Source: Candidatus Baldrarchaeum yapensis (lineage in GTDB: Archaea > Asgardarchaeota > Baldrarchaeia > Baldrarchaeales > Baldrarchaeaceae). Taken from it: 29,034 nucleotides of DNA. Positions 4,309 through 9,644 of this stretch are shown one piece after another (positions within the stretch are counted from its first letter, which is position 1; every line of letters starts with the position of its first letter). A program made the position numbers and the translations under genes. Where the stretch lies: positions 1 through 29,034 of the forward strand of contig JAEOSH010000022.1 of assembly GCA_016840465.1 (NCBI GenBank), given 5' to 3'. The notes under the pieces were generated by a model. The model had not been told where the DNA came from and did not search any database. It was given only the letters and a program-made list of their open reading frames with translations.

Positions 4309-4764
4309 ATGACGTATGAGTACTGCCCATACTGCGGCACCCCCCTACCACCTGGTGCAATGTTTTGTCCCAAGTGCAATGCCTCGCTTATGGAGCCTCC
4401 AGAAGAGTTGGAAAGCATGACCGCTGGCGAAAAGATCTCAATTTCCTCATCCCGCGAAAAAGCAGTCACGGAAACTCCTAGAATCGTAAGAAAGAGGCCG
4501 ATGATTGCGGCAGCCCTCTCAGCTATCGTGCCCGGGCTTGGACATCTGTACGCCGGAAGGAAGAGGAGAGCGGCTTTAATCATGCTTCTGATGGTTCCAT
4601 CTTTCTTCGCAATATTGTTTTTGGTTTTCGCGATGAGCAAGTTCTTCGGAATGCTCCTCTTCCTATCATGGGTACTGGTGTGGGTATGGCAGGTGCGTGA
4701 CTCCTACGATCTGACAGAGCGTATGGCCACGCAGAGGCACATGCGAAGTGCCCCTCGTATGTGA
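4309..4764 (+). CDS. Zinc-ribbon + TM2-like membrane protein
   Basis: CPYCG...FCPKC ribbon, AAALSAIVPGLGHLYAG TM2-like motif, then two hydrophobic helices. Paralog at 10621. Confidence 0.8.
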   Translation: MTYEYCPYCGTPLPPGAMFCPKCNASLMEPPEELESMTAGEKISISSSREKAVTETPRIVRKRPMIAAALSAIVPGLGHLYAGRKRRAALIMLLMVPSFFAILFLVFAMSKFFGMLLFLSWVLVWVWQVRDSYDLTERMATQRHMRSAPRM

Positions 4765-4788: not shown

Positions 4789-4817
4789 TTTTATTTCCAC
4801 TCCCTGCAATATATTGC
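4789..4817 (+). promoter_or_regulatory. TATA-like element and 12-bp palindrome upstream of the C/D sRNA
   Basis: TTTTATTT at 4789-4796, about 25 nt before the sRNA 5' stem. Perfect palindrome GCAATATATTGC at 4806-4817. Confidence 0.45.
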
Positions 4818-4818
4818 T

Positions 4819-4880
4819 GTACCGATGATGAATGGGGACCTCTCGAATACTGATGAAGAGGGTCTACAGCGCTGAGGTAC
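4819..4880 (+). ncRNA. Box C/D methylation-guide sRNA
   Basis: Terminal stem GTACC (4819-23)/GGTAC (4876-80); C box ATGATGA 4825-31; D' TCGA 4843-46 (alternatively CTGA 4850-53); C' TGATGA 4851-56; D CTGA 4872-75. Length 62 nt, intergenic. Confidence 0.85.
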
Positions 4881-5003: not shown

Positions 5004-5288
5004 TTGAGTGTAGGTCCCGAAACTGTGCGCCACATCGCAAAACTTGCCCGCGTGAAGGTCGAAGAGGAAGAGGTTGCGAAGTTCTCCGAACAGTTCTCAA
5101 GAATACTCGAGTTCTTCAACGAACTTGACAAGATAGACGTCTCAAACGTCGAGCCAATGTACCACGTGATCCCCCTCGAAAACGTGTTGCGGGAGGATAA
5201 ACCCTCCCAGCCGCTCGACGTTGAGGATGCGCTCAAAAACGCCCCCGAGAGGAAGGACAAGTACTTCAAAGCCCCGCCAATAATCTGA
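5004..5288 (+). CDS. gatC: Asp-tRNA(Asn) amidotransferase subunit C
   Basis: VRHIAKLARV...ILEFFNELDKID...NVLRED...ALKNAPE...YFKAP. TTG at 5004 is preferred over the ORF-track start at 4941. The stop overlaps the gatA start (TGATG). Confidence 0.92.
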   Translation: MSVGPETVRHIAKLARVKVEEEEVAKFSEQFSRILEFFNELDKIDVSNVEPMYHVIPLENVLREDKPSQPLDVEDALKNAPERKDKYFKAPPII

Positions 5289-6784
5289 TGCAAGTGGTTG
5301 CAATGAAAATTTATGAGATGACCGCGTTAGAACTGCGGGATGCGATAATCCGTGGGGAGTACAAGGTCGAAGAAGTGGTATCAGCATTCTTAGAGAGGAT
5401 AGAAAAGGACCCGCTCAACTGCTACATAACCGTCGTTAAGGAGCAGGCACTGGAGGAGGCCCGCAAAAAGGACAAGGAGATAAAGGAGTACACCCCGGAT
5501 AAGGTTCCGCCCCTCTTTGGAGTACCGATCGCCGTCAAAGACAACATCTCAACTAAGGGTATAAGGACCACGTGTGCATCCAGAATGCTCGAAAACTACG
5601 TGCCCGTCTTCGATGCGACCGTTGTTGAATTACTTAAACAGGCGGGAGCAATAATCGTCGGTAAAACGAATATGGACGAATTCGCGATGGGAAGCACTAA
5701 CGAAACCAGTTACTTTGGCCCGGTCCTTAACCCCTGGGACAGAAGTAGGGTCCCAGGAGGATCCTCGGGAGGAAGTGCGGCAACTGTCGCCGCGCGCCAA
5801 GTACCCTTGGCACTTGGAACCGACACCGGAGGCTCGATAAGGGCGCCAGCAAGTTACTGTGGAATCGTTGGTCTGAAGCCCACTTACGGGATGGTAAGTC
5901 GATACGGCCTGATAGCCTACGCCGATAGCCTAGAACAAATAGGACCCATGGCAAGGACTGTTGAAGATTTGGCTCTGTTATTTGACGTTATAGAGAGATA
6001 CGATCCCCGAGACTCCACCTCGGTTCCGCCGAAGTTCCGCCCCTCGACTGGGAGGCATCTACAGGAGTTGAGAACCATATTTCCGGAGGAGATAAGTGGG
6101 CTGAGAATGGCGCTGATATCGGAACTCATGAGCGAGGGCATCGAATCGGAGGTCTCGCACAGCATAATGAGAAGCGTTGAGATATTCGAGAAATACGATA
6201 TCATGGTCGACGAGATATCGATCCCCGAGCTGAGGTACGCGCTCCCCGCGTACTACATAATTGCAATGGCGGAGGCAAGTTCAAACCTCGCAAGATACGA
6301 TGGTATAAGGTACGGATTCTCCTCGGGTGCCCCCGGGAAGTTCTACGACGTGATCGCCGAAAACAGAAGGCTGGGATTTGGGGAGGAGGTAAGGAGGAGG
6401 ATCCTTCTGGGAACGTTTGTCCTCTCGGCCGGGTATTACGGACAATATTATCTGAAGGCGCTGAAGGTGCGGAGACTGATAAAAGAGGCCCTCGACAGAG
6501 CGTTCAAATCATTCGATATTCTCATTTCACCAACTATGCCCATTCTCCCTCCGAAACTGGGTGAGCGGATAAAGGATCCCCTCACGCTCTACCTCATGGA
6601 TCTATGTACCGTCCCCGCAAACCTCGCCGGGGTTCCCGCATTGTCCATTCCATGCGCATTCGTTAATGGGTTACCCGTTGGGATGCAACTCATGGCCCCG
6701 CCCTTCCACGAAGACGTTCTCTTCAAGGCCGCCTACATCTTCCAAAAGGAGACCCGCCTCTATGAAATGAGTCCTCCCGTGTAG
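5288..6784 (+). CDS. gatA: Amidotransferase subunit A (amidase signature family)
   Basis: AVKDNI (catalytic Lys), GKTNMDEFAMGS, PGGSSGGSAA, GTDTGGSIRAPAS (nucleophilic Ser), SSNLARYDGIRYG, EEVRRRILLG. Confidence 0.96.
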   Translation: MQVVAMKIYEMTALELRDAIIRGEYKVEEVVSAFLERIEKDPLNCYITVVKEQALEEARKKDKEIKEYTPDKVPPLFGVPIAVKDNISTKGIRTTCASRMLENYVPVFDATVVELLKQAGAIIVGKTNMDEFAMGSTNETSYFGPVLNPWDRSRVPGGSSGGSAATVAARQVPLALGTDTGGSIRAPASYCGIVGLKPTYGMVSRYGLIAYADSLEQIGPMARTVEDLALLFDVIERYDPRDSTSVPPKFRPSTGRHLQELRTIFPEEISGLRMALISELMSEGIESEVSHSIMRSVEIFEKYDIMVDEISIPELRYALPAYYIIAMAEASSNLARYDGIRYGFSSGAPGKFYDVIAENRRLGFGEEVRRRILLGTFVLSAGYYGQYYLKALKVRRLIKEALDRAFKSFDILISPTMPILPPKLGERIKDPLTLYLMDLCTVPANLAGVPALSIPCAFVNGLPVGMQLMAPPFHEDVLFKAAYIFQKETRLYEMSPPV

Positions 6785-6794
6785 GTGAGGGGGT

Positions 6795-9644
6795 ATGGGT
6801 AAGGAGCAACCCGAAGTGAGGATAGGATTAGAGATTCACTGTCAGATGTCGAACCTGAAGACGAAGCTCTTCTGCAGTTGCCCTTCCGATTACCGGGATA
6901 AGGATCCAAACACAGTGACGTGTCCCGTATGTTTGGGACTCCCCGGTGCGCTCCCCGTAGTCAATAAAGAGGCAATAAAGATGGCGATAAAGACGGCCCT
7001 CGTACTCAACTCCCAAATCTCGAGGAAGACCTACTTCTACAGGAAACACTACTTCTACCCCGACCTCCCCAAGGGCTACCAGATATCCCAATACGACAGG
7101 GCGGGCGCGGTCCCCTTCGCCGTTGGAGGCTACCTTGACATAGAGGTAAACGGGCGCAGGAAGAGGATAAGGATTCGGAGGATACAGATAGAGGAGGACC
7201 CCGCAAAACTCACATATAGTGGTGCGTCCATCGATGTCGCTCAATTCACAATGATAGACTATAACAGGTCCGGAATTCCGCTTCTGGAAATAGTAACGGA
7301 GCCCGACCTCTCCTCCGCGGAGGAAACCGTGGAATTCCTAAAGAAGTTGCGGATGCTTCTGGAACATATCGGTGTATTTCAAGGAGATCTGGAGGGCGTG
7401 ATGAGGGTAGACGTGAACCTCTCGATAGGGTCCGGCGCCAGGGTCGAGATAAAGAACCTATCCTCCCTGAAGGATGTTGAGAGGGCGATTTCATTCGAGA
7501 TTCTGAGGCAGACGAGACTCATGCGTGAAGGGATAGAGGTAAGAAGGGAAACGCTCCACTGGGACGACAAGGCACGTAGAACCTATACTCTGAGAGAGAA
7601 GGAGGAGGAGCAGGACTACAGGTATTTCCCCGATCCCAACCTCCCTCCCCTCATGATAACGGATGAAATGATAGAGGAAGTCAAGAAGGAACTCCCGCAT
7701 CTGCCGGAAATGCTCGTCGAGAAGTATGTCAGCGAACTCGGAATCCCGGAGAATATGGCGAGAGTGATAGTGCAGGACGTAACGCTCTCCAGATTCTTTG
7801 ATGAATGTGTGGAATCCGGTGGAAACCCGGCAGAGGTTGCTCGCTGGCTCCTAAAACTCCCGAAGGAGGACAAGGAAACCCTCCTCTCAAAGTGGGACAC
7901 ATCCGGGTTCGCCAAGGTCGTCGACGTACTAAAGAACTATGAGGTTCCGGACGACATAGGCGTCAACCTGATTCATGATTACCTCTCGGGGAAGATAACG
8001 CTAGAGGATGTGGAGGAGGGAGGAAGGAAGATCGCAGAGTCACGTAAATATCTTAAGGAGAAGATAATCGAAATCCTATCCTCAATAGAAGTTCCAAAGA
8101 AGGTAATTGAGAGGATAGGCGGAGATGAGGAGAAGTTAAGGGGTTTCGTCATAGGGCAGGTGAAAAAGCTTCTTTCCAAAACGTATGGCAGATTCATAGA
8201 CTCCAAACTCGTCGCCGAACTGGTATCGGAGAACTTTGGTGTTGTAAGGGAAAGAGTAAAGCTGGAGAAGAAAGAAGAGGTCACCCCCACCGTCACAGTT
8301 AGGGAAAGGATCGTAGAGGGTCTGGAGGGTCTTCGGAGGACCCACTTCACGGATGAGGTCACTTCTGATCTCGAGGGAGAAGAGGTAGTGGTGTACGGCT
8401 GGGTCCAAAGAATAAGCCGCCTCGGAAAACTCACCTTCCTGGTGCTCAGAGACGGAAGAGGAATAATCCAAGTGAAGATCTCCAGAAAGGAGTGCCCCGA
8501 GGAGGTCGTCAAGAAACTGAAATACATAACGCCGGAGTCGGTGGTAGCGGTCAAGGGCACCGTTAGGGTCGACAAGAGGGCGCCCACCGGAGTCGAAATA
8601 GTTCCCAGCGAGATGAGGGTTCTCGCAATTAGTGAGAAACTCCCATACACCCTAGAGCAGGCCCGTGAGGTCGACCTTTCCACACGGCTCGACTACAGGT
8701 ACATCGACATAAGGAGGGAGAGCGTCAGGGCGATCTTCAGAATAAGGTCCACGGTGCTCCACAGCATCAGTAACTTCTTCCACGAGCACGGCTTCGTCGA
8801 GATCAACACCCCCAAGATAATTGCAACAGCGGCAGAGGGAGGCGCTGAACTATTCTCCCTTCTCTTCTACGGAAGAGAAGCGTACCTCAGCCAAAGTCCT
8901 CAACTTTACAAGCAAATGGCAACTCTCGGGTTTGAGCGCGTCTTCGAGATAGGACCATGCTACAGAGCGGAAAAGTTCCACACGACAAAGCACCTAGTAG
9001 AGTTCTGGGCCCTCGATGTCGAGGTGGCATTCGCAACATACCATGACCTCATGAAGATCCTCGAGGACCTGATGGTGCACGTGTACAGTGATGTTATAGA
9101 GAAGCACCCGAAGGAGTTGGAGATACTGGGTGTGGAGCTGGAGGTCCCGAAGCCCCCGTTCCCCAAGATAACCTACGATGAGGCGCTCAAAATAGCGGCG
9201 AGCAAAGGATATGAGGTAGAGTGGGGCGACGACGTACGTGGTGAGGCCTTCAGGGCGGTGTCAAACGACTTTGCAGAACGTGGACACGAGTTCTTCTTCA
9301 TAATAGACTTCCCAGCGTCCGCAAGAGCATTTTACTACAAGCCACATGAGAAGGATGAACGACTCACTAAGAGTTTTGATCTAGTGAACAGCGTCAAGGG
9401 AGGAATAGAACTCTCAAGTGGAGGGGAGAGAATAAACGACATAGACCTCCTAGTAAAGAGACTTAGGGAGCGGGGTCTCGACCCCGAGAAGTACACGTGG
9501 TACCTTGATATGTTCAAATACGGGGTCCCACCACACGGAGGATTCGGTCTAGGAATAGAAAGACTCCTGCAGGCGATGCTTCGCCTCGACAACATAATGG
9601 AGGCAGTGTTCGTACCGAGAACGCCTCAGAGACTCACACCATAA
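6795..9644 (+). CDS. gatB-aspS: GatB::aspartyl-tRNA synthetase fusion (GatB aa 1-481, 31-aa linker, archaeal-type AspRS aa 513-949)
   Basis: GatB: IGLEIHCQ, FCSC/CPVC, RKHYFYPDLPKGYQISQY, EEDPAK, DYNRSGIPLLEIVTEPD, RVEIKN, DYRYFPDP, FVIGQVKK tail. AspRS: RTHF...GWV, LRDG, EGGAELF, QSPQLYKQ, GPCYRAEK, SSGGER, PPHGGFGLGIERL, PRTPQRLTP. One uninterrupted 949-codon frame. Confidence 0.95.
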   Translation: MGKEQPEVRIGLEIHCQMSNLKTKLFCSCPSDYRDKDPNTVTCPVCLGLPGALPVVNKEAIKMAIKTALVLNSQISRKTYFYRKHYFYPDLPKGYQISQYDRAGAVPFAVGGYLDIEVNGRRKRIRIRRIQIEEDPAKLTYSGASIDVAQFTMIDYNRSGIPLLEIVTEPDLSSAEETVEFLKKLRMLLEHIGVFQGDLEGVMRVDVNLSIGSGARVEIKNLSSLKDVERAISFEILRQTRLMREGIEVRRETLHWDDKARRTYTLREKEEEQDYRYFPDPNLPPLMITDEMIEEVKKELPHLPEMLVEKYVSELGIPENMARVIVQDVTLSRFFDECVESGGNPAEVARWLLKLPKEDKETLLSKWDTSGFAKVVDVLKNYEVPDDIGVNLIHDYLSGKITLEDVEEGGRKIAESRKYLKEKIIEILSSIEVPKKVIERIGGDEEKLRGFVIGQVKKLLSKTYGRFIDSKLVAELVSENFGVVRERVKLEKKEEVTPTVTVRERIVEGLEGLRRTHFTDEVTSDLEGEEVVVYGWVQRISRLGKLTFLVLRDGRGIIQVKISRKECPEEVVKKLKYITPESVVAVKGTVRVDKRAPTGVEIVPSEMRVLAISEKLPYTLEQAREVDLSTRLDYRYIDIRRESVRAIFRIRSTVLHSISNFFHEHGFVEINTPKIIATAAEGGAELFSLLFYGREAYLSQSPQLYKQMATLGFERVFEIGPCYRAEKFHTTKHLVEFWALDVEVAFATYHDLMKILEDLMVHVYSDVIEKHPKELEILGVELEVPKPPFPKITYDEALKIAASKGYEVEWGDDVRGEAFRAVSNDFAERGHEFFFIIDFPASARAFYYKPHEKDERLTKSFDLVNSVKGGIELSSGGERINDIDLLVKRLRERGLDPEKYTWYLDMFKYGVPPHGGFGLGIERLLQAMLRLDNIMEAVFVPRTPQRLTP

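Follow-up and report, generated by a model that had tools for sequence, protein, structure and literature searches.

The 29,034-nt stretch of DNA from "Candidatus Baldrarchaeum yapensis" analyzed here (the window) carries, in the 239-nt gap between an open reading frame (ORF) for a zinc-ribbon membrane protein and the gatC gene, a 62-base element that resembles a box C/D sRNA gene, which raises the question of whether such an sRNA is encoded there and, if so, which RNA it would modify. A preliminary description proposed guided methylation of tRNA-Tyr, with Gm34 at the wobble position and Um47, and pointed out that a tRNA-processing operon follows directly. Judging from its sequence, the element very probably encodes a genuine archaeal box C/D sRNA of an ordinary kind, and the best explanation, which we consider likely, is that both of its guides are directed at the organism's own 23S rRNA; the sRNA is predicted to be transcribed, to assemble into an RNP, and to direct methylation at both sites. 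It would add one unannotated methylation guide RNA, with two 2'-O-methylation sites predicted on 23S rRNA, to the annotation of an archaeal lineage that is adapted to heat and has been poorly sampled. The main value of the analysis is negative and concerns the idea of a tRNA-Tyr Gm34 linked to a tRNA-dependent amidotransferase operon, which fails because the consensus on which it depends is absent from the tRNA-Tyr of this genome.

Box Anatomy and Class of the Element

All the sequence parts of an archaeal box C/D sRNA are present on the forward strand of window 4819-4880 (Table 1), and every string that the preliminary description quoted from this interval is found in it. Spacers in archaeal C/D sRNAs are usually 12 nt long (about 10-12 nt). 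The consensus-like boxes of the element leave spacers of 11 and 15 nt, while taking CGAA and AUGAAGA as the D' and C' boxes gives 12 and 12 nt, with the D' target shifting to the adjacent G. The K-loop arrangement (UCGA, 3-4 nt, and then (C)UGAUGA) is present, and the homolog from an uncultured member of the Desulfurococcales that is discussed below (locus L041) is arranged likewise. Between the two guide regions, 4834-4842 and 4857-4865, there is partial complementarity (GGACC.UCU with AGAGGGUCU), and the protein-free minimum-free-energy fold pairs them with each other.

Table 1. Features of the sRNA locus and related elements; positions are those of the window unless a contig (C) or locus (L) is named
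Feature	Position	Strand	Remarks
Zinc-ribbon membrane-protein ORF	4309-4764		Upstream of the sRNA
Possible archaeal TATA-like element	4789-4796	+	TTTTATTT; ~26 nt upstream of the 5' stem; putative, from sequence
Terminal stem, 5' half	4819-4823	+	GTACC; fully complementary to 4876-4880; paired in the minimum-free-energy fold
C box	4825-4831	+	AUGAUGA (consensus RUGAUGA); aligned with the C box of Rfam archaeal C/D models
D' spacer/guide	4832-4842	+	ATGGGGACCTC (RNA AUGGGGACCUC); 11 nt
D' box	4843-4846	+	UCGA (TCGA in DNA); degenerate, weak; GA retained
Alternative D' box	4844-4847	+	CGAA; 12-nt spacer
Loop	Between D' box and C' box	+	AUA; read from the sequence
C' box	4850-4856	+	CUGAUGA; UGAUGAAGA identical in L041
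Alternative C' register	4853-4859	+	AUGAAGA; 12-nt D spacer
D spacer	4857-4871	+	AGAGGGTCTACAGCG (RNA AGAGGGUCUACAGCG); 15 nt
D box	4872-4875	+	CUGA; consensus sequence
Terminal stem, 3' half	4876-4880	+	GGTAC; complements 4819-4823; 5-bp stem
gatC	5004-5288		Start ~124 nt downstream of the sRNA
gatA	5288-6784		Comes after gatC
D' guide and its 23S match	4833-4842; L001:3238-3247		10 consecutive Watson-Crick pairs
D guide and its 23S match	4863-4871; L001:3565-3573		9 consecutive Watson-Crick pairs
23S rRNA gene	C59:1031-4195		Complete (locus L001)
tRNA-Tyr(GUA) gene	C61:35720-35861	-	Sole copy in the window's genome (G000); 64-nt intron (ARAGORN)
Fibrillarin gene	C64:1307-1987		Side by side with the Nop5 gene
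Nop5 gene	C64:2098-2775		
sRNAs with a 15-nt D spacer (strict pattern, G000)	C32:1095-1144	-	
	C9:10786-10837	+	
	4825-4875	+	The sRNA of the window
Homolog in Desulfurococcales MAG CAZTBM010000038.1	L041:5070-5121		Gapless alignment from C box to D box

At permissive thresholds, approximately 24 archaeal C/D families from Rfam (sR14, sR41, sR1, sR2, and snoPyro_CD, among others) align over their full length to 4821-4877, on the forward strand only, with a best E-value of 5e-4 and scores of 9 to 22 bits that are all under the respective gathering scores. A search at the gathering thresholds returned no match to the sRNA, as is expected because the archaeal sR families in Rfam are guide-specific. 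A strict box-and-spacing pattern had 7 matches across the 2.27-Mb genome, compared to none in the reversed-sequence control. The boxes, the full-length Rfam alignments, and this control all uphold the original assignment of the element to the box C/D class. In 3 of the 7 sRNAs found with the strict pattern, the C' (UGAUGA) and D (CUGA) boxes are separated by 15 nt and not by 12 nt, which would reflect either a 3-nt shift in the C' register or a tolerance of this lineage for long D spacers.

In the mechanism proposed here, an sRNA of ~60 nt would be transcribed from its own promoter in the intergenic region between the zinc-ribbon membrane-protein gene and gatC; a scan for promoters around the sRNA with a tool that models sigma-70 sites only gave no match. 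The C/D motif of this RNA would form a K-turn and the C'/D' motif a K-loop, both of which would bind L7Ae, Nop5, and fibrillarin, the last two being encoded side by side in this genome. Each guide would then pair with nascent 23S rRNA, allowing fibrillarin to 2'-O-methylate the rRNA nucleotide that faces the guide base five positions upstream of the box.

Matches of the Two Guides to 23S rRNA

The genome assembly includes a complete 23S rRNA gene and the 3' half of the 16S rRNA gene, whose first ~700 nt are missing. The target criterion of Dennis et al. 2015 (PMC4644070) calls for at least 9 consecutive Watson-Crick pairs that cover the +5 position, and both guides pair with the organism's own 23S rRNA in just this manner. 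The match of the D' guide UGGGGACCUC abuts the D' box and places its +5 base, A4838, opposite U3242 of L001, and the match of the D guide UCUACAGCG abuts the D box, with its +5 base, C4867, forming a Watson-Crick pair with G3569. As for the missing 5' part of 16S rRNA, no anchored match of at least 8 bp was found in four other 16S genes from the phylum (three complete and one partial). The calculated duplex energies are -20.7 kcal/mol on 23S rRNA versus -14.2 kcal/mol on tRNA-Tyr for the D' guide and -15.2 versus -13.8 kcal/mol for the D guide. When shuffled guides were compared with rRNA, the 10 bp of the D' guide were reached in 1.2% of the trials and the 9 bp of the D guide in 6.3%; with random 4.3-kb pieces of the genome, the respective values were 0.7% and 1.5%, and both matches at once were seen in 0 of 3,000 trials. 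Antisense and reversed rRNA controls gave 6 to 8 pairs only.

According to an alignment with E. coli rrlH (strain MG1655), which is the source of the E. coli numbering used here, the U of the D' site corresponds to approximately position 1984, in domain IV, and the G of the D site to approximately position 2318, in domain V, which we take to be part of helix 84. In terms of the 23S gene of this organism, the D' guide would direct the formation of Um at position 2212, or modification of the adjacent G (2211) if the D' box starts one base later, and the D guide would direct the formation of Gm at position 2539. The two targets are ~330 nt apart, so the sRNA would not be a classical double guide, in which the sites are within 100 nt.

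The motif that contains the D' site appears to be targeted in Thermoproteus, Ignicoccus, and the Desulfurococcales metagenome-assembled genome (MAG) as well. Thermoproteus tenax sR51 and Ignicoccus hospitalis sR308, for which the predicted site is G2249 of the 23S alignment (Dennis et al. 2015, PMC4644070), place a guide on the same conserved domain IV motif ACGAGGUCCCCACUG, which occurs in its exact form in the 23S rRNAs of Pyrobaculum and Thermoproteus in that alignment; IHOsR308 has ...GGGACCTCG before its box. Their G2249 directly adjoins the U of the window sRNA at ~2250 within the same GAGGUCCCC motif. The registers, accordingly one base apart (G versus U), coincide if the D' box of the window sRNA is read as CGAA. 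The similarity is limited to this guide: the partner guides of sR51 and sR308 and their targets differ from those of the window sRNA, and the IHOsR308 guide is found in the D position, as opposed to the D' position in the window sRNA. That the D' guide targets 23S rRNA is highly probable.

The D site corresponds to G2588 of the same 23S alignment and would be a new position: no sRNA is listed for positions 2586-2591 in any of the seven archaea covered there, and G2588 is not predicted as a site in any of them (PMC4644070). It falls, however, within a region that four other archaea are predicted to modify 5 nt away, at C2583, the site ascribed to Pca sR109, Tte sR26, Mka sR33/sR61, and Iho sR86 (PMC4644070; the assignment of these sRNAs follows the annotation lines in that alignment). 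Since C2583 lies 5 nt upstream of the predicted target G2588, the duplexes formed by these sRNAs overlap the stretch paired by the D guide of the window sRNA, both covering the domain V sequence CCGC(C/U)GUAGAG.

The evidence for the D guide could also be read to mean that the sRNA, while real, has a single productive guide (D' on 23S rRNA), with the D guide being either an orphan or a pairing or chaperone arm that does not direct methylation. By itself, the D match is marginal (p about 0.02-0.06), its site is absent from the predictions for the seven surveyed archaea, and G001, the closest relative that has a 23S rRNA gene, shows an identical D' site and, at the D site, CGCCGCAGA, which differs at two bases. 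Furthermore, the D guide has been replaced in the Desulfurococcales homolog, and about one-third of archaeal sRNAs are reported in the literature to lack any match to rRNA. Set against these points are nine unbroken pairs directly adjoining a consensus D box and including a Watson-Crick pair at +5, the kind of match that the accepted criterion demands, as well as the use of the same region, at C2583, by sRNPs of four other archaea. On balance, we regard a sole productive guide as rather improbable and an orphan D guide, taken on its own, as unlikely, and prefer the assignment of the D guide, too, to 23S rRNA, which is reasonably probable.

A separate observation concerns the RefSeq record NZ_AP027616.1 (locus L034), a circular sequence of 2,911 bp described as 'E. 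coli plasmid pLR-72_4', which consists of a 23S rRNA gene without the E. coli 5'-end motif GGTTAAGCG. The lack of this motif makes it unlike E. coli rrl, and the 'plasmid' is probably a contaminant or a misassembly.

tRNA-Tyr and Its Precursor as Putative Targets

The proposal of a tRNA-Tyr target relied on the D guide being the reverse complement of the tRNA-Tyr anticodon arm, taken to be GCUGUAGACCC. The only tRNA-Tyr(GUA) gene of this genome (Table 1), which the Rfam tRNA model lists along with 40 other tRNAs, does not contain this sequence, either spliced or unspliced. The anticodon arm of its product is GGCGG-CUGUA(C/U)A-CCGCC, with the stem GGCGG/CCGCC; G31-A36 is GCUGUA, position 37 has C or U, and A38, C39, C40, and G41 come next. 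A pyrimidine at tRNA position 37 is unusual. Because every splice yields this pyrimidine, the guide base C4864 is mismatched, and the D guide forms six consecutive pairs (positions 31-36) and, beyond the mismatch, three more, for 9 of 12 pairs in all. The registers noted in the preliminary description were correct, in that the D+5 base falls on G34 and the D'+5 base, A4838, is opposite U47, but the duplexes are short: six consecutive pairs for the D guide and seven (A44-C50) for the D' guide. The latter, moreover, involve AGGUCCC, a generic variable-loop/T-stem motif with which the D' guide forms 8 bp in two other tRNAs.

Searches for a second tRNA-Tyr or for a spliced form with GCUGUAGACCC yielded neither, as ARAGORN and Rfam both report one tRNA-Tyr, with C or U at position 37 in all splices. 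Whole-genome complements of the two guides that match at 11-12 of 12 positions outside the sRNA itself fall in unremarkable regions with no tRNA predicted by ARAGORN.

It is still conceivable that the sRNA methylates tRNA-Tyr, with the D guide specifying Gm34 and the D' guide Um47, either on the precursor or on the spliced tRNA in spite of its mismatched position 37. Among tRNAs, the D guide matches tRNA-Tyr best, with G34 in the +5 register; its 9 of 12 pairs contain one internal mismatch and give a duplex energy not far from the 23S value cited above, and the D' guide also finds a match in this tRNA, at A44-C50. Guided wobble methylation is, besides, established for other tRNAs, those described in the literature consulted being tRNA-Trp, -Gln, -Val, -Thr, -Leu, and -Met, with tRNA-Tyr not among them; such guides include those for tRNA-Leu, -Met, and -Trp in Pyrococcus and sR26/27/45/46 in Pyrobaculum (PMC7994747, PMC6009581). 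The window sRNA shares with the Pyrococcus and Pyrobaculum guides the placement of a +5 base opposite position 34 of one tRNA. However, those guides show extended complementarity to the tRNA and usually have an orphan second guide, which published work describes as typical of tRNA-targeting sRNAs, whereas the window sRNA has only 6 consecutive pairs with its tRNA and two guides that both match 23S rRNA better. Stretches of 6 and 7 consecutive pairs fall below the 9-bp criterion and are within reach of shuffled guides on sequence sets of similar size, the mismatch of C4864 persists in every splice, and two other tRNAs do better than tRNA-Tyr with the D' guide, for which a far better and evolutionarily shared target exists on 23S rRNA. 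The preliminary description had itself named both a genomic tRNA-Tyr without GCUGUAGACCC, which is the case here, and a better rRNA target as arguments against its proposal, and the organism's own 23S rRNA provides such a target for both guides, with 10 pairs for D' and 9 for D compared to 7 and 6, respectively, on tRNA-Tyr. Methylation of tRNA-Tyr by this sRNA thus appears very unlikely, and G34 of tRNA-Tyr is a very improbable target of the D guide.

A variant of this proposal involves the intron-containing precursor. The 15-nt D spacer can form 6 + 7 pairs (-18.6 kcal/mol), first with GCUGUA and then, across a 6-nt bulge, with GACCCUU of the intron; this pairing might, besides or instead of that with 23S rRNA, place Gm34. 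If true, this would be the first tRNA-Tyr with a guided wobble methylation, and a tRNA intron would serve as a handle. The energy of this bulged duplex speaks for it, but bulges are not accepted by the published target rules, and the intron strand of the duplex is locked in an 11-bp hairpin. The bulged pairing also proved to be no better than chance, as 34% of shuffled guides equal or beat it on some pre-tRNA. We consider it even less likely than methylation of tRNA-Tyr in general and retain 23S rRNA as the preferred target of both guides.

As for the intron itself, its 11-bp hairpin (CCUUGGGACCC/GGGUCCCAAGG) has a loop with UGAUG...GUGAGA that resembles a K-loop, and its 3' ACAG pairs with C32-U35.

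Homologs of the sRNA and the gat Neighborhood

BLAST searches of 60 relatives detected no orthologs of the sRNA, a strict D-guide pattern run against 400 genomes of the phylum matched only the window's own genome, and patterns for the D' guide and for a co-varied D guide gave, in the four order-level relatives, only matches without boxes. A pattern scan across GTDB returned a single archaeal match, in an uncultured Desulfurococcales MAG (L041, Table 1), whose sequence is also present in a metagenome locus (L055). The other GTDB and metagenome matches look like chance, and most of the named ones come from bacterial records.

The L041 sequence, apparently an unannotated C/D sRNA to judge by its boxes, has the same box spacing as the window sRNA. 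The C box, the D' guide UGGGGACCUC, and UGAUGAAGA are identical in the two, the 4-nt loop is identical or nearly so, and the D' box is UAGA in L041 versus UCGA in the window sRNA, both of the form xxGA. In contrast, the D guide of L041, ACTCGAAGTTAA, is unrelated to that of the window sRNA; its best match is the conserved sequence GUAACUUCGGGA at approximately positions 1687-1698 of E. coli 23S rRNA, the 23S rRNA of the Desulfurococcales MAG itself being absent from the assembly.

These comparisons also bear on the skeptical view that the region upstream of gatC contains chance motifs and no RNA gene. The lack of an ortholog in close relatives and of an Rfam family at gathering score would fit that view; but chance is very unlikely to have produced together the four boxes, the 5-bp terminal stem, both 23S matches, and a homolog that has the same spacing and belongs to another archaeal order, which makes the absence of an RNA gene here exceedingly improbable.

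Nor does the place of the sRNA, before gatC and a tRNA-processing operon, provide a functional link. gatC starts ~124 nt downstream of the sRNA (Table 1), and in the four order-level relatives neither such an sRNA nor a GatA homolog at E <= 1e-40 was found. The nearest homologs of GatA are one ENA protein with 72% identity (P0002) and otherwise proteins from Bathyarchaeia and Thermoproteota with 53-60% identity. This mostly bathyarchaeal and thermoproteotal affinity and the lack of GatA in the four order-level relatives at that threshold suggest that the gat operon (window 5004-9644, comprising gatC, gatA, and the next gene) may have been horizontally acquired.
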